Origin: an uncultured Spirochaetales bacterium
GTDB taxonomy: Bacteria; Spirochaetota; GWE2-31-10; JAFGQB01
Assembly: GCA_964646595.1 (NCBI GenBank)
Contig: CAZYID010000007.1
Location: 1 to 33,024 of the forward strand
DNA: 33,024 nucleotides
Direction: 5' to 3'
Shown here: one piece after another, positions 9,861 to 32,972 of the stretch
Numbering within the stretch: position 1 is the first letter of the stretch
How the letters are laid out: each line of letters opens with the position of its first letter
Made by a program: the position numbers and the translations under genes
The notes under the pieces: model-generated
Database searches by the model: none
The model's input: only the letters and a program-made list of their open reading frames with translations
Told to the model about the DNA's origin: nothing

Positions 9861-9987
9861 AAGCTCTGTCCCCCTATTAAAAATAATAATCATATTATAT
9901 TTAAAAAGATTTACAAAATCATATAAAAAGAAATATATATAGATTGCTTTGCTGCGCTCGCAAAGACGAAATAAACCTCTGTCCCCC
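9861..9987 (+). repeat. Intergenic repeat element, copy 1: GC-rich ATTGC...CTCGCAAAGACGAAATAA unit flanked by direct AAGCTCTGTCCCCC / ACCTCTGTCCCCC motifs
   Basis: AAGCTCTGTCCCCC (9861..9874) and ACCTCTGTCCCCC (9975..9987) bracket AGATTGCTTTGCTGCGCTCGCAAAGACGAAATAA (9941..9974). That unit closely matches 30614..30647. An internal 6-bp hairpin is CTTTGC/GCAAAG. Confidence 0.75.
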
Positions 9988-16685: not shown

Positions 16686-16836
16686 TTTTTTGCTCCAATT
16701 ATAATTATAAATAATATTTTTTTTATCTATGATAGATGGATGAGACATTCGTCTCTTTTGTAATTATTTATGTTTATAAAATAAATAAAAATTTATATTT
16801 ATGCAAGATAAGTATTAAAAAAAGTAAGAAATATTT

Positions 16837-16847
16837 AGCTCTGTCCC
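16837..16847 (+). repeat. Solo copy of the dispersed intergenic motif AGCTCTGTCCC
   Basis: Exact AGCTCTGTCCC in the divergent spacer between the yjbQ-like gene and the Cys-rich ORF. The same 11-mer occurs at 9862..9872 and, reverse-complemented, at 20339..20349. Confidence 0.7.
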
Positions 16848-16933
16848 TCAAAGAAATCATAATTAGTATATTTGAAATATTTTAAAAAATATGTTAAAAA
16901 TAATGTAAAATAATTATTATTAAGGAAACTGTT

Positions 16934-17079: not shown

Positions 17080-18210
17080 ATGAAAATAGCAGCAGATGTT
17101 AATATTCCATTTGTTAAAGAAGCTTTTAAAAATTTTGGAGAAGTAGAATTATTTCCAGGCAGGGACATTGAAAATAAAATAGTAAAAGATGCAGATATAT
17201 TACTTGTAAGATCAGTTACTAAGGTAAATAAAGAGCTTTTATCCGGAACAAAAATTAAATTTGTAGCAACAGCAACAATTGGTATTGATCATATAGATAT
17301 TGATTATTTAAATGAAAATAAGATTGGCTTTGCAAGTGCTCCCGGGTCAAATGCTGACTCCGTTGCAGAATATGTTGTTTCTGGTTTATTAAACTTATCC
17401 AAAAAGTATGATTTTAATCTTAGCGAAAAAAAAGCCGGAATAATTGGTGTTGGAAATGTAGGCATTAGAGTAAAAAAAAGACTGGAAATTTTAGGAGTAG
17501 AATGTCTATTAAATGATCCTCCAAAACAAAGAGAAACAGGCAACAATATTTATTTGCCTCTCGATAAAGTACTAAGATCTTCAGATATAGTAACAGTTCA
17601 TGTTCCATTAAATAAAACAGGAATTGATGCTACATTGCATTTAATAAATGAAGAATTTTTATCAAAAATGAAAAAAGGTTTTATTTTAATTAATTCAAGT
17701 CGCGGAAAAGTAATGAATGAATCTGCTATTAGAAAAAGTAGAGATAAATTAATGGCGCTTATTTTAGATGTTTGGGAAACAGAGCCTATTGTAAATATTG
17801 ATACACTTAATTTAACAGATATTGCCACGCCTCATATTGCAGGATATTCTTATGATGGAAAAGTTCGTGGAACAGAGATGATATATCATGCTGCATGTGA
17901 TTTTTTTAACATTGAAAAAAAATGGAATAAAACAGAATTTATTAAACCTGAAAATGATCTGTTAATTGATTTAAGAAAATCTAATGAACCAATTTTTGAT
18001 GCAATTAATTGTGCATATCCTATAATCCAGGATGATAAAAACTTTAGAGGAATAAAAAATATTGATTTAGAAAAGCACAATGATTTTTTTGATAAATTAA
18101 GAAAGAATTATCCGAAAAGAAGAGAGTTTTTTAATTATTCATTACATTATGATAATAACATAGATAAAGTATCTCTGGATGTTTTATCAAATCTTGGATT
18201 TAAAATTTAA
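17080..18210 (+). CDS. pdxB: 4-phosphoerythronate dehydrogenase (PLP biosynthesis)
   Basis: Collinear with my recollection of E. coli PdxB: MKI..D.N.P....F...GEV...PGR at the N-terminus, LLVRSVTKVN, GIIGVGNVG NAD motif, HIAGYSYDGKVRGT, and the C-terminal FDKLRKNYPKRREF dimerisation-domain motif. ~376 aa. Confidence 0.9.
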   Translation: MKIAADVNIPFVKEAFKNFGEVELFPGRDIENKIVKDADILLVRSVTKVNKELLSGTKIKFVATATIGIDHIDIDYLNENKIGFASAPGSNADSVAEYVVSGLLNLSKKYDFNLSEKKAGIIGVGNVGIRVKKRLEILGVECLLNDPPKQRETGNNIYLPLDKVLRSSDIVTVHVPLNKTGIDATLHLINEEFLSKMKKGFILINSSRGKVMNESAIRKSRDKLMALILDVWETEPIVNIDTLNLTDIATPHIAGYSYDGKVRGTEMIYHAACDFFNIEKKWNKTEFIKPENDLLIDLRKSNEPIFDAINCAYPIIQDDKNFRGIKNIDLEKHNDFFDKLRKNYPKRREFFNYSLHYDNNIDKVSLDVLSNLGFKI

Positions 18211-18217
18211 GTGATGT

Positions 18218-18400
18218 TTAACCCGCATTTCTCACAAGCCCTTGGTTTGAAAGTTGTATCTTTTGCCCTGATAAGTATTTACTTCTGCACTTGATTCTCA
18301 CATAGTGTAACTATGCTGCGAGTCTCGTTTAGTCGTAAATCCTTATCAGAACAGAATCTACGACGTTTCAATCTAGTGGTTTGTGAGAAAAGCTGGTTAA
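18218..18400 (+). repeat. 183-nt near-palindromic repeat element, copy A (candidate structured RNA or MITE-like element)
   Basis: 171/183 identical to 32790..32972 in the same orientation. It folds end to end into one long imperfect hairpin: terminal arms TTAACCCGCATTTCTCACAAGCC / GGTTTGTGAGAAAAGCTGGTTAA, an inner stem CTGATAAGTATTTAC / GTAAATCCTTATCAG, and an apical stem CATAGT-GTA-ACTATG. TTAA at both termini. GC content is clearly above that of the flanks. Confidence 0.85.
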
Positions 18401-19038
18401 AGACCAATTTCAGCACTTATTCTATATATTGTATCAAATGCTTCAGGTGAATTTTCTATTTTGCCTTCATTTAGTAATTTTTGTAATTCAAGTAAATATT
18501 CTTTAAGAAATTTTGAAACTGTATTGCTGCCATATCTAACATTTCCGTTTTGAGCTTCTATAATATAAGGAGTTTTTATAAATTCATATATTTTTGCTAA
18601 AGCTTTAATGTTTTTTTCAGAGTTGCCAATTATAGTGTGTTTCATAGAGTTGAATATTTTAGCAATAATAAAAGGATATCCAATACTATGATAATTAGCG
18701 AATTCACTTGAAACATTAAATAAATGGTTTTTGTCTTGAAATTTATTTTGTAGAATATCAAATGCTTTAAAACAATTTTCATTATTATCAAGTTTATTAT
18801 AAACAATAATATCATATAGAAGATCTGATAAATATGGTTCTGCTTCAGGATTAAAATTGCTATTTTCGATTGTTGTTAATGTCTCTGTATCAAGTTCTAG
18901 TAAACGTCTTTTTTCAAAATAACTTCTTGATTTTTGTTTTATTTCAACCCATTCTTTAGTAATTAAAAAACTATTTTCACTAATTATTGGTTTAATTAAA
19001 AGTAAAATAAACAAAGAACTTAAAAAAATCTTTTTCAT
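18397..19038 (-). CDS. Hypothetical secreted protein
   Basis: N-terminal signal-like MKKIFLSSLFILLLIKPIIS and no recognisable motifs. Its stop codon (TAA on the minus strand, 18397..18399) lies inside the terminal TTAA of repeat copy A. Confidence 0.55.
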   Translation of the reverse strand: MKKIFLSSLFILLLIKPIISENSFLITKEWVEIKQKSRSYFEKRRLLELDTETLTTIENSNFNPEAEPYLSDLLYDIIVYNKLDNNENCFKAFDILQNKFQDKNHLFNVSSEFANYHSIGYPFIIAKIFNSMKHTIIGNSEKNIKALAKIYEFIKTPYIIEAQNGNVRYGSNTVSKFLKEYLLELQKLLNEGKIENSPEAFDTIYRISAEIGL

Positions 19039-19243: not shown

Positions 19244-20314
19244 ATGAATTTTCATCTAATTATTATAGGATTTATTGAAATTATATTATCTGCATTAAGT
19301 GGAATATTAATTTATTTTATTAGTCTAAAAGTATTCTCGTTTTTAACTAAAGATATTAATGAAACAGAAGAATTAAAAAATAATAACATTGCAGTGTCTA
19401 TTTTAGTCTCCTCGTTTCTTTTCTGCATAATGCTATTAATAAAAGAATCGATTGGTCCGTCAATGGAAACTCTTAGTTTTACAATGATTTCAGTTAATAT
19501 ATCTTTGAATAATGTTGGTTTGGCTGTTTTAAGAATTTTATTAATGTTTCTTATTTCAGCTGTATTTGCGTTTATTTTTTTATGGGTATCAATGATTGTT
19601 TTTATGCTTCTAACTTCAAAAATAAATGAAATACAGGAAATTAGAAAAAATAATATTGCTGTTTCAATAATTGTTGGTGTATTAATGCTTAGTCTTGCTC
19701 TAATTATATTAAATCCGTTAAAAACATTACTTAAAGGATTTGTTACCGGACCAATTATAGCCGGAGGTATGAAGGAACCATTAATTCAAGCAAAAACAGT
19801 TATTCTTGGTTCAATACAATTAGGTATTTCAATTGTTGCTGCAATTTGTATATTCTTTTATGGTTTTAAATTATACGATTTATTAACAAGAGATATTAAT
19901 GAAGTAACTGAGTTAAAATCAAACAATATTGCTGTTTCGATACAAATTTCAGCATTTATTTTTTCTATAATGATATTAGTAAAAGCAGCTTTAGTCCCAT
20001 CATTTGATACATTAACCAGGGTAATCTACCAAGGAGTGTCTACTCAGCTATTATTATTATCAATTTTAAAAATTGTAATATTTTTTGTTTTAGCGGCAAT
20101 TTTTGCTTTTTTTATTTTATGGCTTGTAATGAAAGGATTTATGTTCATTAATAAAAATATTGATGAGATGAAAGAAATTAAGAATAATAACATTGCTGTT
20201 GCTATAGCAATTGCTGTTTTACTTATTTCAGCTTCATTATTGCTGCAGCAGGGATTAACTGCATTTTTAAGCGGACTAGCAGAAAAAGCACCAGAAGTAA
20301 TGAGAATATTTTGA
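19244..20314 (+). CDS. Polytopic membrane protein built from four DUF350-like repeats
   Basis: A helix - [LTKDINETEELKNNNIAVSI / LTSKINEIQEIRKNNIAVSI / LTRDINEVTELKSNNIAVSI / INKNIDEMKEIKNNNIAVAI] - helix unit recurs four times at ~90-aa spacing. The E-x-I-x2-NN-x-AV-x-I signature matches my recollection of the DUF350 (YjfL-like) family. Confidence 0.65.
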   Translation: MNFHLIIIGFIEIILSALSGILIYFISLKVFSFLTKDINETEELKNNNIAVSILVSSFLFCIMLLIKESIGPSMETLSFTMISVNISLNNVGLAVLRILLMFLISAVFAFIFLWVSMIVFMLLTSKINEIQEIRKNNIAVSIIVGVLMLSLALIILNPLKTLLKGFVTGPIIAGGMKEPLIQAKTVILGSIQLGISIVAAICIFFYGFKLYDLLTRDINEVTELKSNNIAVSIQISAFIFSIMILVKAALVPSFDTLTRVIYQGVSTQLLLLSILKIVIFFVLAAIFAFFILWLVMKGFMFINKNIDEMKEIKNNNIAVAIAIAVLLISASLLLQQGLTAFLSGLAEKAPEVMRIF

Positions 20315-20338
20315 TTAATTTATATTTTATTTGATATA

Positions 20339-20349
20339 GGGACAGAGCT
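20339..20349 (-). repeat. Solo copy (reverse orientation) of the dispersed motif AGCTCTGTCCC
   Basis: GGGACAGAGCT on the plus strand, in the 44-nt spacer between convergent genes (ends 20314 and 20359). Confidence 0.7.
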
Positions 20350-20358
20350 AAACTTAAT

Positions 20359-22823: not shown

Positions 22824-25466
22824 ATGAAAAAATCACTTAAGAAAAAGTTAATTTTAGTAATAATGATTGTTGTTACTCTTATTATATCATTATATATAAT
22901 ATTCAATATTATATATGAATATTATATTATTAAGAAAGAACAAAGAATATCTTTAGTAAATATAACTAATCGTTTAGCATATTCATTATCGATTTCAGTT
23001 TTTAACCATAATATAGAACAAATCAATAATTATTTATTTGCAGAGATGATGAATAAAAACATTTATGCAATTGTTATTATGGACTTGATTGATAAATCAT
23101 TAATTTCTGGAAAAATTAGAAATGAAAATTGGGCTGTAATTAACTATGATATTTCAGATAATTTAAATAATAATATTAAAAAAAAAGCTTTTATTTCAAG
23201 AGCTGGGAAGCAGGTAGGTACAGTTGAAGTGTATTTTACTTTTAAATATATAAAAAAGTCTTTTTTTAAAACTTTAGTAATTAGATTATTAATAATTTTT
23301 TTCTTTTCAGGAATTATTATAATTGTTCTTTCTATTTCAATTTCAAAAATAATTTTAAAACCAATTAATAAATTAAAAAATTATGTTGAAATTGTATCAA
23401 AAGGTGATTTAGTTACTCCTATAAATATTGTAAGTGATGATGAAATTGGCGGTTTAGCAAAAAGTTTTAATATAATGCATAAAACTATTATTGATAAAAT
23501 GAAAATTCTTGATAAAAAAAATAAAGAATTAAATAGGGAAATTAAAGAAAAGAAAAATACTAAAGAAACATTAAAAATAAGTGAAGAAAAATTTAAAGGA
23601 TTATATTTAAATATGATTGAAGGTGTTGCTTTACATCAAACAATTTATAATAAAAAGGGTAAACCAATTAACTATAAAATAATTGATATTAATCCTCAAT
23701 ATGAAAAGATTTTAAATTTAAAACGCAAAGATATTGTTAATTGTTTAGCAACTGAAGTATATAAGACAAAGGAACCGGCTTATTTAAAAGAATTAACTGA
23801 TGTTGGAGAAACAGGAATTCCATATTATTTTGAAACTTATTTTCCTCCAATGGATAAACATTTTGCCATTTCTGTTGCTCCAATTTCTAAAGGTCAGTGG
23901 GCTACTATTTTTATTGATATTACAGAACGTAAGAAAACTGAACAGGCATTAAGAGAGAGCGAAGAAAGATATAAGAAATTATTTGAAGTATCTCCTGAAG
24001 CTATTGCAATATCTGATGAAAATGGGATTATTATTAATTGTAATAATCCTGCAGTAAAAATTTATGGATTTAATTCAAAAGAGGAAGTTATCGGTAAAAA
24101 TGTTTTTGAGTTTATAGCTCCTAAAGATCATGAAAAAGTAAAAGGCAAACTAGCCGAATTGTTAGAAAAGAGTTTAATATCAAGTTCTGAATATACATTC
24201 TTAAAAAAAAATGGTGAAAGTTTTAATGGAGAATTATCTGCAGGTTTGATGAAAGATTTGAAAGGTGATACTATTGGCTTTGTTGCGATTATAAAAGATA
24301 TAACAGAACGTAAGAAAACTGAACAGGCATTAATAGAGAGTGAGGAGCGATATAAGAAATTGTTTGAAGTATCTCCTGAAGCAGTAACAATTACTGATTT
24401 AGATTTAATTATTACAAATTGTAATAATATAACAGTCAGGGACTTTGGCTATGATTTGAAAGAAGAAATTGTTGGGAAAAATATTTTTGATCTATTAGCG
24501 TCAAGAGATCACGAATTAATAAAAGAAAAAGTGTTACATATGTTAGTGAGCAACCATCCACAGAATGTGGAAGTAACTTTTTTTAAAAAAAATGGAGAAG
24601 AATTTGCAGGAGAATTATTAGGTAATATAATAAAAGATATAAACGGAGAACCTGTCGCTATTATATGTATATCAAAAGATATTACTAGTAGAAAAAATTT
24701 TGAGAAGGATCGAGTAATTCAGGAACAGAAACTAATGCAGGTTCAAAAATTAAATGCTCTTGGAGAATTATCTGCAGGGATTGCTCATGAAATAAATCAG
24801 CCTTTAAGCGGGATCTTAATGGCAACAGATATTATTAAAATAAAACTTAAAGAAGATATAATTGACAAAGAACATCTTAAAGAAAAAATGCATAATATTA
24901 ATGATTATATTAATAGAATAAAAAAAATTATCGAACATGTAAGAATATTTTCCCGCGATCAAAAAGATGTAAATATAGAAGAGTTTAATATAAATGAAAG
25001 TATTACAAATGCTCTTTCACTAATTAAAGGACAGTATAAAAATCATAATATTAATATTAATCTAAAATTATCATCAAGTTTACCAAAACTTAAAGGTAAT
25101 GTTTATCAATTTGAACAGATAGTTTTAAATTTAATAAGCAATTCAAAAGATGCTTTAGAAGAAAAAGAAAAAATTATGAATATTAAAGAATTTAAAAAAG
25201 AGATAAAATTAAAAACTGTTTATGATAATAAAAATATTTTTTTTGAAATATATGATAATGGTATGGGGATTTCAAAAGAAAATATAAAAGAAATTTTTAA
25301 TCCATTTTTTACAACAAAAGATACTGATAAAGGAACAGGTCTGGGATTGTCAATATCTTATGGAATTATAAAAGAAATGAAAGGATCTATTAATGTTGAA
25401 AGTGAGTATAAGAGTTATACAATAGTAAAAATTAATTTTCCTAAGGAGTTAAATAAAAATGAATGA
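22824..25466 (+). CDS. Membrane sensor histidine kinase: 2 TM + extracytoplasmic domain, HAMP, three PAS domains, HisKA, HATPase_c
   Basis: TM helices at aa ~10-30 and ~150-172, HAMP (ILKPINKLKNYVEIVSKGDL...DEIGGLAKSFNIM) and three PAS units. H-box LSAGIAHEINQPL, N-box LNLISNSKDAL, G1 YDNGMGIS, G2 GTGLGLSISYGI. Confidence 0.9.
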   Translation: MKKSLKKKLILVIMIVVTLIISLYIIFNIIYEYYIIKKEQRISLVNITNRLAYSLSISVFNHNIEQINNYLFAEMMNKNIYAIVIMDLIDKSLISGKIRNENWAVINYDISDNLNNNIKKKAFISRAGKQVGTVEVYFTFKYIKKSFFKTLVIRLLIIFFFSGIIIIVLSISISKIILKPINKLKNYVEIVSKGDLVTPINIVSDDEIGGLAKSFNIMHKTIIDKMKILDKKNKELNREIKEKKNTKETLKISEEKFKGLYLNMIEGVALHQTIYNKKGKPINYKIIDINPQYEKILNLKRKDIVNCLATEVYKTKEPAYLKELTDVGETGIPYYFETYFPPMDKHFAISVAPISKGQWATIFIDITERKKTEQALRESEERYKKLFEVSPEAIAISDENGIIINCNNPAVKIYGFNSKEEVIGKNVFEFIAPKDHEKVKGKLAELLEKSLISSSEYTFLKKNGESFNGELSAGLMKDLKGDTIGFVAIIKDITERKKTEQALIESEERYKKLFEVSPEAVTITDLDLIITNCNNITVRDFGYDLKEEIVGKNIFDLLASRDHELIKEKVLHMLVSNHPQNVEVTFFKKNGEEFAGELLGNIIKDINGEPVAIICISKDITSRKNFEKDRVIQEQKLMQVQKLNALGELSAGIAHEINQPLSGILMATDIIKIKLKEDIIDKEHLKEKMHNINDYINRIKKIIEHVRIFSRDQKDVNIEEFNINESITNALSLIKGQYKNHNININLKLSSSLPKLKGNVYQFEQIVLNLISNSKDALEEKEKIMNIKEFKKEIKLKTVYDNKNIFFEIYDNGMGISKENIKEIFNPFFTTKDTDKGTGLGLSISYGIIKEMKGSINVESEYKSYTIVKINFPKELNKNE
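23916..24001 (+). repeat. Intragenic direct repeat, copy 1 (PAS1/PAS2 junction)
   Basis: An 86-nt segment encoding DITERKKTEQALRESEERYKKLFEVSPEA, ~90% identical at nucleotide level to 24297..24382. Confidence 0.85.
24297..24382 (+). repeat. Intragenic direct repeat, copy 2 (PAS2/PAS3 junction)
   Basis: Encodes DITERKKTEQALIESEERYKKLFEVSPEA, 381 nt (127 codons) downstream of copy 1. Confidence 0.85.
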
Positions 25467-30531: not shown

Positions 30532-30662
30532 AAGCTCTATCCCCTTCAATGTCATTGCGAGAGTTGAAAGATCGAAGCAATCTATTATTAAATAGTAATA
30601 AAGTAATAAATATAGATTGCTTCACTATGCTCGCAAAGACGAAATAATTAAGCTCTGTCTCC
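30532..30662 (+). repeat. Intergenic repeat element, copy 2: two inverted ATTGCGAG/CTCGCAA units flanked by direct AAGCTCTATCCCC / AAGCTCTGTCTCC motifs
   Basis: Left motif at 30532..30544. Unit L: GTCATTGCGAG-N12-GAAGCAATCT (30551..30583). Unit R: AGATTGCTTC-N6-CTCGCAAAGAC (30614..30640) plus GAAATAA. Right motif at 30650..30662. L and R are reverse complements (10/10 and 10/11 bp). Unit R plus its motif parallels 9941..9987. Confidence 0.8.
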
Positions 30663-30676
30663 ATGTATTTAGTATT

Positions 30677-31498
30677 TTACTCATTGATAAATTTTTCTAA
30701 AGTTTTACTGATTTTATTTTTATTTAAATACAAAAAATCATTATGGCCGCCTGTGGATTCGTAAAATTGTTTTGGTTGCCCGGCTTTTTTAAAAAGTTTT
30801 TGTCCCATTGAGAATGGAATGATTTCATCATCAACACTATGAATGATAAGTTTGGGGCAATTTATTTTTTCAATTTTATTTATAGAATCAAATTTAACAG
30901 ATAAAAATAAACCTGCAGGTACATAAGGCATAATAATTTTACTCATTTCCTTTGCAGATGTTAAGCCGCTGTCCACAATAAGTTTCGAAATATTTACTTT
31001 TGATGAAAGATCTACAGCAGCTGTTGTACCTATTGATTTACCATAAACAATGATATCATCAGGATTAATTTTTTTTTGATTAATTAAGTATTCATATGAA
31101 GATAAAGCATCTATATATATCCCTTTTTCTGAAGGCTTGCCTTTACTTTTTCCATAACCGCGATAATCAATTATAAAAACATTCATTCCCAGTTTTGATA
31201 ACATCTCAATAATATCTATCCTGTGGCTGATATTCCCTGCATTACCATGGAAAAAAAGAATTGTTTTTGAATTTGAATTGATTGGAATAAACCATCCATG
31301 TATTTTTACTTTATCTTTGGTTACTAGATAAATATCTTCATATTTAAGTCCAATACTTGAAGGATTTGTTTCCAGTTCTTTAAAAGGGTGAAATATAAGT
31401 TTTTTTTCATAATATTTTATAAAGAGGAAAATTAGAAATATAATAATAAAAAAGATAATTAAAATTTGCAGCATAATATTCATTATATTATTTTTCAT
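30677..31498 (-). CDS. Alpha/beta hydrolase with an N-terminal membrane anchor
   Basis: N-terminal TM (ILIIFFIIIFLIFLFI), oxyanion-region HGNAGN, nucleophile elbow GKSIGT (GxSxG), and a late D and H (HSVDDEI, GGHND). Confidence 0.8.
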   Translation of the reverse strand: MKNNIMNIMLQILIIFFIIIFLIFLFIKYYEKKLIFHPFKELETNPSSIGLKYEDIYLVTKDKVKIHGWFIPINSNSKTILFFHGNAGNISHRIDIIEMLSKLGMNVFIIDYRGYGKSKGKPSEKGIYIDALSSYEYLINQKKINPDDIIVYGKSIGTTAAVDLSSKVNISKLIVDSGLTSAKEMSKIIMPYVPAGLFLSVKFDSINKIEKINCPKLIIHSVDDEIIPFSMGQKLFKKAGQPKQFYESTGGHNDFLYLNKNKISKTLEKFINE

Positions 31499-32777
31499 TT
31501 AAATTATAATTATATTCTTTGACTTTTAACAGTAATATTGCCCCGAGTGTAAAAAAGAACAAAAGACTTAATATTCCATATTTAGAATGACCGGTAATTC
31601 TTGTAAATATTCCAAGAATAAATGGACCCAGTATTATTGAAAACTTTCCAAAGATATTATAAAAACCAAAAAACTCCGTTGCTCTTTCCCTTGGTATAAT
31701 TTTACTGAATAATGATCTGCTTAGTGCTTGAATACCTCCTTGAGAGGTAGCAACAAGAAATGCAAGAATCCAGAAAAAAATGATTTTTAAATTTATAGTC
31801 GGCATTGACGGTAAAAAAAAACCTATTATAGTAATTATAGAATAAATACAAATACCTATAAATATCATTATTTTAGGAGATTTTTTTTGAGCGAGTTTGC
31901 CATACATAAGAGTAAATGGGAATGCAATAATTTGAATAAATAAAATTGCAGTGATTAGTGTAATTTGATCTAGTCCGATATCTCTGCCGTATGCAGTTGC
32001 CATACTGAAGATTGTGTGTATACCGTCAATGTAAAAAAAATAAGATAATAAAAATATTAATATTATTTTATTTTTAAAAATTTCTAAAAAAGTATTAAAT
32101 AATCTTTTAAAAGAGTCTTTTAAAAAATGCGAATTATTTTCAACAAAGTAAATTTGTTTAACATTTTTTATCATAGGAATAGAAAAAATAAACCACCATA
32201 CAACAACAATAATAAAACTTATTTTTGAAGGAATAATTGGAATTAATTTTGATTTGTTCATTATTTGTATTGGAATAATAATTGCAATAACCAGTAAAAA
32301 GGGAATCACACTTCCAATGTATCCTAATCCAAAACCAATTGAGGATAACCAGTCCAATCTTTCTTTTTTTGTAACATCAACTAGAAATGCATCATAAAAG
32401 AGGTTTGCTCCAGACCATCCTATCCTGGCTAACATAAATATAATTAAACATTTTAACCAGTCTCCTTCATTGATAGTTGTAAATAAAAGAGTAAATAATA
32501 TTCCAAAAAATAAAAAAAATACAAACAGCCTTTTTTTGTTGTTTTTTAGACTTCCAACTGCTCCCATAAAAGGTGATAATACTGCAATAATTGATGAAGC
32601 CAGAGCATTGGCAAATCCCCAGTTTGAAGTTGAAATGGATCCATCAATACCTTTAGATGCAATGTCTTTAAAATATATTTGAAAAATAGTAGTAATAATG
32701 ATTAAAACAAAAGCGGAGTTTGCAACATCATACAATGCCCAGCTTATTTCTTGTTTTGTAAATTTAAATTTTATCAT
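31488..32777 (-). CDS. MFS transporter, UMF1/Atg22-like family
   Basis: ~12 predicted TM helices. The N-terminal signature EISWALYDVANSAFVLIIITTIFQIYF is typical of UMF1-type MFS proteins. It overlaps the downstream hydrolase start by 11 nt, indicating an operon. Confidence 0.75.
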   Translation of the reverse strand: MIKFKFTKQEISWALYDVANSAFVLIIITTIFQIYFKDIASKGIDGSISTSNWGFANALASSIIAVLSPFMGAVGSLKNNKKRLFVFFLFFGILFTLLFTTINEGDWLKCLIIFMLARIGWSGANLFYDAFLVDVTKKERLDWLSSIGFGLGYIGSVIPFLLVIAIIIPIQIMNKSKLIPIIPSKISFIIVVVWWFIFSIPMIKNVKQIYFVENNSHFLKDSFKRLFNTFLEIFKNKIILIFLLSYFFYIDGIHTIFSMATAYGRDIGLDQITLITAILFIQIIAFPFTLMYGKLAQKKSPKIMIFIGICIYSIITIIGFFLPSMPTINLKIIFFWILAFLVATSQGGIQALSRSLFSKIIPRERATEFFGFYNIFGKFSIILGPFILGIFTRITGHSKYGILSLLFFFTLGAILLLKVKEYNYNLNEK

Positions 32778-32789
32778 AGTTATTTTTAC

Positions 32790-32972
32790 TTAACCTGCAT
32801 TTCTCACAAGCCCTTGGTTTGAAAGTTGTATCTTTTGCCCTGATAAGTATTTACTTCTGCACTCGATTCTCACATAATGTAATTATACTGCGAGTCTCGT
32901 TTAGTCGTAAATCCTTATCAGAACAAAATCTACTGCGTTTCAATCTCAAGGTTTGTGAGAAAAGCGGGTTAA
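32790..32972 (+). repeat. 183-nt near-palindromic repeat element, copy B
   Basis: Same length and orientation as 18218..18400, with 12 substitutions. It starts 12 nt from the MFS start codon (32775..32777, minus strand). Confidence 0.85.

Follow-up and report, generated by a model that had tools for sequence, protein, structure and literature searches.

The question raised by this locus is whether a GC-rich, almost fully self-complementary repeat lying just behind a pdxB gene is a structured RNA or a mobile element. In the window, by which we mean the whole stretch of 33,024 nt that was analysed, the repeat occurs at 18218–18400 (copy A) and at 32790–32972 (copy B) as direct repeats of 183 nt each with 93% identity. 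The sequence-only reading had described two copies in the same orientation with 12 substitutions, divided 3 to 9 between the 5' and 3' halves, and alignment confirms each of these statements (exactly 12 substitutions, at positions 7, 75, 88, 94, 98, 137, 145, 146, 158, 159, 160 and 177). The contrast in GC content that it had claimed holds as well, at 0.41 for the element versus 0.265 for the whole window and host contig; this is a foreign composition in a 26.5% GC contig and was counted in favour of a MITE. No further partial copies were found elsewhere in the 33-kb window. Our results make it very probable that the hairpin repeats are 175-bp non-coding, non-autonomous derivatives of the IS1380 family, that is, MITEs that keep only the transposase-binding ends. 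The hairpin repeat is an ordinary kind of bacterial genome parasite and not a new structured RNA, and for annotation this means that a GC-rich hairpin repeat is explained as a transposon relic and is not filed as a candidate riboswitch or sRNA.

The evidence that carries this assignment comes from the ends of the element. The sequence-only reading had proposed a search for an IS element sharing the terminal repeats as the mark of an ordinary MITE, and such elements exist: the termini CCYGCATTTCTCACAARCC match the inverted repeats of 1.66–1.86 kb elements that encode IS1380-family transposases, found both in metagenomes and on plasmids of Pseudomonas putida and Rhizobium. Full-length insertion sequences with the same termini decide in favour of a MITE. 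In copy A the left TIR (CCCGCATTTCTCACAAGCC, 18222–18240, plus strand) agrees over its first 14 nt with the two termini of the P. putida pKF715A IS1380-family element and with the ends of full-length metagenomic IS copies, and the right TIR (18378–18396, minus strand; reverse complement CCAGCTTTTCTCACAAACC) matches the family consensus CCYGCWTTTCTCACAARCC and pairs with the left TIR in the fold, so that the element has a 19-nt imperfect TIR. The P. putida copy (L144) begins with CCCGCATTTCTCAC and ends with GTGAGAAATGCGGG, with CTAG on either side, and the copy on an R. leguminosarum plasmid has the same right end and likewise CTAG flanks.

The distribution of these ends extends well beyond the host. 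When the terminal 23-mer TTAACCNGCWTTTCTCACAARCC was scanned against one genome per GTDB species, it matched 18 contigs, from MAGs that span about 10 phyla (Omnitrophota, Brocadiaceae, Pirellulales, Chlamydiota, Bdellovibrionales, Thermoanaerobaculia, Aminicenantes, Deltaproteobacteria, Spirochaetaceae and Spirosoma), none of them from a low-GC organism, and a slightly relaxed end pattern was found in at least 120 contigs of the metagenome collection. Matches often lie at contig ends, as expected for a multicopy repeat. Only the terminus is common to the 18 contigs, the interiors being unrelated; complete short elements of 165–252 bp with the same two ends are present in 5 of the 18, and most of these fold as long hairpins. 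When ends were paired over all loci, about 57 short elements (39–333 bp) and five of 1680–1857 bp including TSDs were obtained. The five long elements (L058, L062, L070, L117 and L138) have one ORF each, of 451–527 aa; the three ORFs that were scored match PF13701 (DDE_Tnp_1_4) with 452–506 bits and NF033539 'IS1380 family transposase' with 371–385 bits (cut-off 180). The L138 transposase shares 49% identity with that of IS1380A from Acetobacter pasteurianus and 57% with transposases annotated as IS1380-family on the P. putida and Rhizobium plasmids. IS1380-family elements are described in ISfinder as about 1.55–2.0 kb long, with direct repeats of 4–5 bp and ends starting with CC. The relatives, which are 1655–1857 bp long and have 4-bp repeats and CCYGC ends, fit this description; IS1247 is listed with a 5-bp direct repeat (PMC3281130).

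All transposase-bearing elements that share these TIRs come from hosts other than that of the window. The low-GC contigs retrieved yielded no IS1380 transposase, and the statement of the sequence-only reading that the window has no transposase is borne out by tblastn, which found none in the 33 kb at E<=10. The 175-bp core contains no ORF of at least 80 aa. In a search for the parent IS, BLAST against all retrieved loci matched only the ends, over about 23–35 nt, outside the subfamily itself, and no short element has more than 32 nt in common with any full-length IS retrieved. We propose that an IS1380-family DDE transposase, whose gene lies or once lay elsewhere in the genome, would have recognised TIRs of roughly 14–19 nt (CCYGCATTTCTCAC followed by AARCC) and mobilised the short element in trans.

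Identification of the target-site duplication defines the extent of the mobile unit. Both copies have TTAA at either end (18218–18221 and 18397–18400 for copy A; 32790–32793 and 32969–32972 for copy B), which had been put forward as a possible target-site duplication. Since TTAA is its own reverse complement, the window copies alone cannot distinguish a direct from an inverted repeat, which the flanks of the family can. Among non-palindromic 4-bp flanks across the family, counted with a search pattern that held one flank to YTAA and left the other free, 19 are direct (14 TTAG/TTAG and 5 CTAA/CTAA) and 3 are inverted (CTAA/TTAG). As the family flanks are direct, TTAA is a target-site duplication, and the mobile unit is therefore a 175-bp imperfect palindrome at 18222–18396 in copy A and at 32794–32968, in the same orientation, in copy B. 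The earlier figure of 183 nt for the element is thus to be corrected, the outer TTAA lying outside it. The family flanks and the CTAG of the plasmid copies combine to the target consensus YTAR. The element would have inserted at such a tetranucleotide, here TTAA, and the presumed transposition chemistry would have duplicated the four bases.

Upstream of copy A lies the gene for a PdxB-like 4-phosphoerythronate dehydrogenase (17080–18210, plus strand), with matches to Pfam 2-Hacid_dh_C and DUF3410 and 406 bits for NF001309, just below the cut-off of 434. As the sequence-only reading had noted, the repeat begins just past the pdxB stop (18208–18210), at the 8th nucleotide after it, and its terminal TTAA holds the stop of a convergent minus-strand gene (18397–19038), which reads TTA at 18397–18399. 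The 213-aa product of this gene has no match in Pfam or NCBIfam; its 15 homologues are all about 212–213 aa long. Homologues P0002–P0015 have 54–75% identity and belong, in several uncultured low-GC relatives, to the synteny DUF350, orf, pdxB. Exact-protein look-up of three flanking proteins returned no identical record. The host is a low-GC anaerobe that has NrdD, sigma-54 regulators and chemotaxis genes.

Four contigs from related species (62–74% amino acid identity) have DUF350 and orf212 facing pdxB, with the convergent stops 3–14 bp apart and no element between them. These empty orthologous sites are all from other species; both other assemblies of the locus (L080 and L147) are filled, and no filled/empty polymorphism within the species was found. 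The C-terminus of the convergent gene product, ISAEIGL followed by the stop, is conserved in homologues without the element, and the stop in the window is therefore native. The proposal that the element supplies the stop codon of its neighbour accordingly has the order reversed, the insertion being into a TTAA that already held the native stop. In the TTAA that copy A entered, 7 nt from the pdxB stop, a Leu codon of the 213-aa gene contributed its final base and the TAA stop made up the rest; gtgatgtTTAAagacc is the junction expected without the 179-bp insertion (the 175-bp core and one TTAA). Insertion of copy A into this tetranucleotide, as we envisage it, would have left both convergent genes intact because TTAA was duplicated. 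A target that contains a stop codon lets insertions sit exactly at gene ends with the genes undamaged.

The hairpin itself is the main reason for considering a structured non-coding RNA, in which the roughly 70-bp hairpin of a plus-strand transcript would be the selected product. The long hairpin that had been described is reproduced: the plus strand of copy A folds into a single hairpin of 73 pairs with −79.4 kcal/mol, versus −34.7 ± 4.0 kcal/mol for dinucleotide shuffles (z = −11), and this very stable fold speaks for an RNA. However, the minus strand folds nearly as well (−68.4 kcal/mol, z = −9.4), and in copy B it folds better than the plus strand. The long hairpin follows from the element being a palindrome over its whole length and is not evidence of a selected RNA. 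No known RNA family had been recognised in the hairpin, and Rfam agrees, with no matches at the gathering threshold in the whole window and none at E<=1 in 18100–18500.

The pair changes between the copies were all listed correctly in the earlier reading. Pair 88:94 changes from G-C to A-U, which is compensatory and favours an RNA, pairs 46:137 and 25:159 change from G-U to A-U, pair 37:146 changes from A-U to G-U, and positions 98, 145 and 158 disrupt pairs. The support for RNA structure that was drawn from this pattern does not survive: in an alignment of four full and two partial copies, where 95.5% of cells pair and the power is low, a single pair has both sides changed, which gives a covariation score equal to the mean of the shuffles; 380 of 500 column shuffles reach it. 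The excess of G-U pairs, taken as a hint of selection on the plus-strand RNA, amounts to 7 G.T versus 2 A.C when the arms of copy A are compared (0–2 C-A in copy A by another count), with p=0.18, and the same strand asymmetry is significant in none of 23 elements from many subfamilies. Neither covariation beyond that of related sequences nor strand-specific pairing was thus found.

Constraint can also be judged from an orthologous copy. The copy A locus of another strain, L147 from a third sample, is 99.1% identical to the window over 2687 bp. Between the two, 7 of 175 positions of the MITE are substituted (4.0%), compared with 10 of 666 third codon positions (1.5%; Fisher p = 0.06) and none of 205 nt in another spacer. 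Of the seven changes none is compensatory: two disrupt pairing within the TIRs, two replace G-C by the weaker G-U, one converts G-U to A-U and two fall at unpaired positions. Copy A drifts at least as fast as neutral sites and shows no constraint. That the orthologue changes faster than synonymous sites, with pair-breaking changes included, argues against an RNA product, as does the confinement of cross-phylum conservation to the ends, which are transposase TIRs, rather than the interior; the full-length insertion sequences with identical ends had already weakened that explanation. A selected structured RNA is therefore very improbable. Of the two possibilities left by the sequence-only reading, the MITE is upheld by the IS termini and the direct 4-bp duplications, and the RNA receives no support from the Rfam, covariation, G-U and L147 results.

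By sequence, the approximately 57 short elements form about 30 clusters, which have only their ends in common. The conserved end is CCYGCATTTCTCAC and then a weaker AARCC, with conservation figures that are partly forced by the search patterns and the regular expression. Elements of 120–225 bp are mostly palindromic over their whole length and those of 240–330 bp are not. Full-length insertion sequences have only about 14–16 nt common to their two ends, and in 4 of the 5 it is the end away from the transposase start that is of the 'CACAAGCC' type. The window MITE has this type at both ends, whereas full-length copies usually have one such end, and this comparison suggests that the window MITE may have arisen by inverted duplication of one IS end. 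Minimal elements in which two TIRs stand back to back (39–64 bp, with YTAR-type flanks) were observed in L091 (1078–1126), L090 (5253–5317), L048 and L120 (64-bp cores) and L081 (110–148); the one in L091 is a 41-bp TIR-TIR element in a low-GC contig like that of the window's host. An Omnitrophota MAG (L011, 2644–3274) has an internally deleted IS1380-family element with N-terminal FDRGTITSDAGGLLLRE and C-terminal RLKLFKLGARIRVTVRRI transposase remnants behind the same end, and L003, L009 and L016 have similar ends. It is a deletion-type non-autonomous derivative, unlike the palindromic MITEs. Across MAGs of about 10 phyla the CCYGCATTTCTCAC IS1380-type end is a marker of short non-autonomous elements, and the TIR pattern offers a simple probe for such elements and for assembly breaks in metagenomes.

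Conserved ends around a variable interior, within an imperfect palindrome found in integron-bearing phyla, also give the element a superficial likeness to an integron attC site, and it could in principle be this or another palindromic DNA site (a REP/RAYT element, or a hairpin of replication or recombination). Against this, the window has no integrase, cassette array or RAYT gene, and the neighbours are housekeeping genes. The ends GTTAAAG and GTTAATA do not fit the attC core GTTRRRY (RYYYAAC / GTTRRRY), and a passage in PMC3733652 gives REP elements as 20–40 bp in size. Furthermore, the same ends bound transposase genes, and 4-bp direct duplications are a signature of transposition. We regard the probability of such a site as negligible; the attC and REP readings are ruled out by the target-site duplications and full-length insertion sequences, the end sequences and the genomic context.

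Further insertions of the same MITE subfamily were found in low-GC contigs from two JGI samples, which carry the 183-nt unit. One is the window's own locus (L080, 99.7% identity, with the copy A insertion present), one is the copy B locus and continues past the end of the window (L059), and three are other sites with copies 88–90% identical (L024, L029 and L077). The same or a closely related low-GC organism thus has five insertion sites (A, B, L024, L029 and L077) and the L091 mini-element. In L024 and L077 the TSD includes the stop codon of the flanking ORF, the L091 mini-element lies 7 nt past a stop, and the L029 copy is 109 nt upstream of a start. This placement at stops and upstream of starts is explained by the TAA or TAG present in the target, together with counterselection of insertions within genes. 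Surviving insertions would be expected to sit on or next to stops, or just upstream of starts, in such a compact AT-rich genome.

Copy B lies 12 nt from the ATG of an ATG22/MFS-type transporter gene (31488–32777, minus strand; Pfam PF11700 and PF07690). A promoter-like site at 32882–32911 on the minus strand (TTTACG-18-TATAAT, 10/12 sigma-70-like, a consensus match only) faces this gene; it arises from copy-B-specific substitutions in the apex and is not flagged in copy A. Insertions so placed may affect neighbouring transcripts, and a MITE could have been co-opted by its host, with copy A serving as a shared 3'-end hairpin (an RNA stabiliser or terminator) for convergent genes 7 nt apart and copy B as a promoter or 5' leader for the MFS gene. 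ERIC and Correia elements are examples of repeats that affect mRNA stability. Co-option would fit the retention of copy A at the same site in three assemblies (the window, L080 and L147), the pre-insertion convergent stops, which left no room for terminators, and the orientation of the promoter-like site. Outward promoters are carried by IS1380-family members (PMC9330008), and other MITEs are reported to affect neighbouring genes (PMC3184786). However, no terminator-like site was detected, and neither strand has a T-run behind the hairpin; the promoter-like match is in an AT-rich apex, where such matches are common (7 in the scan versus 2.7 expected). The L147 orthologue is free of sequence constraint, and relatives do without the element. 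Co-option is therefore unlikely, and we retain the reading of both copies as MITE insertions.

The window contains further repeats. A second dispersed intergenic motif, AGCTCTGTCCC, is present at 9862–9872, 9975–9985, 16837–16847, 20339–20349 (minus strand), 30533–30543 and 30651–30661; these are 6 intergenic matches with at most one mismatch, out of 7 in all versus 0.07 expected by chance, and they include the inverted pair I1 (16834–16881 and 20305–20352). A 48-nt GC-rich repeat at 9927–9974 and 30600–30647 (88% identical) contains GATTGCTT and GCTCGCAAAGACGAAAT, and behind each copy stands a AGCTCTGTCCC-like motif, with a related inverted version of the repeat, GTCATTGCGAG and CGAAGCAATC, at 30550–30585, about 50 nt upstream of its second copy. 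The 48-nt repeat resembles a small intergenic repeat of REP-like or composite type and was not seen in the other loci fetched. A 243-nt direct repeat (23907–24149 and 24288–24530; 75% identical, 381 nt apart) lies within an 880-aa sensor histidine kinase ORF (22824–25466) and probably represents duplicated PAS domains.

Among known systems, the window elements can be compared with the IS1380 family (IS1380A of Acetobacter, ISEcp1, ISPme1, IS1247 and unnamed plasmid copies). The likeness consists of the TIR, CCCGCATTTCTCAC being identical on the P. putida copy, the 4-bp direct duplication at YTAR or CTAG, and the transposases of relatives, which score with NF033539/PF13701 and are 49–57% identical to named or annotated members. 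In contrast to these insertion sequences, the window elements are 175 bp long and without a transposase, are palindromic throughout where full-length copies share about 14–16 nt between their ends, and have an interior unrelated to any IS retrieved.

Prokaryotic MITEs are about 100–250 bp long, share TIRs with insertion sequences, have direct repeats, are intergenic, form stable predicted hairpins and show filled and empty sites (PMC3184786). The window element has the same signatures, being short and without transposase coding, with TIRs that are shared with insertion sequences, a TSD, dispersed copies and filled and empty sites. It may thus be set beside other bacterial MITEs, namely Nezha of cyanobacteria, Chunjie of Geobacter, Correia of Neisseria, ERIC of enterobacteria and RUP of pneumococcus, from which it differs in its TIR and parent family (the family of ISNpu3, the partner of Nezha, is outside this comparison) and in that about 30 subfamilies, unrelated in their interiors and spread over about 10 phyla, have its TIR. 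In the literature searched we found no MITE attributed to IS1380 and no link between IS1380 and a CTAG/TTAA target, and a 2024 review of prokaryotic MITEs does not mention IS1380.

IS1380 transposases form the prokaryotic outgroup of piggyBac in phylogenies (PMC10813416). We tentatively entertain a broader reading, to which we give rather less than even chances, in which the element is the tip of an undescribed cross-phylum superfamily of IS1380-derived MITEs (about 30 subfamilies with a shared 14–19-nt end) that insert at TTAA/YTAR in a piggyBac-like manner and settle on TAA/TAG stops. The piggyBac type of targeting would then have its prokaryotic counterpart, and possibly its source, in the IS1380 clade, and 3'-end hairpins of this kind would be widespread and unrecognised. 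The elements described here differ from piggyBac and its MITEs, which are eukaryotic, in the sequence of the TIR, in their prokaryotic hosts and in a relaxed target (TTAA, TTAG/CTAA and CTAG), but the IS1380 clade duplicates a 4-bp YTAR target, as its presumed eukaryotic relative does at TTAA or TTAA-like sites.
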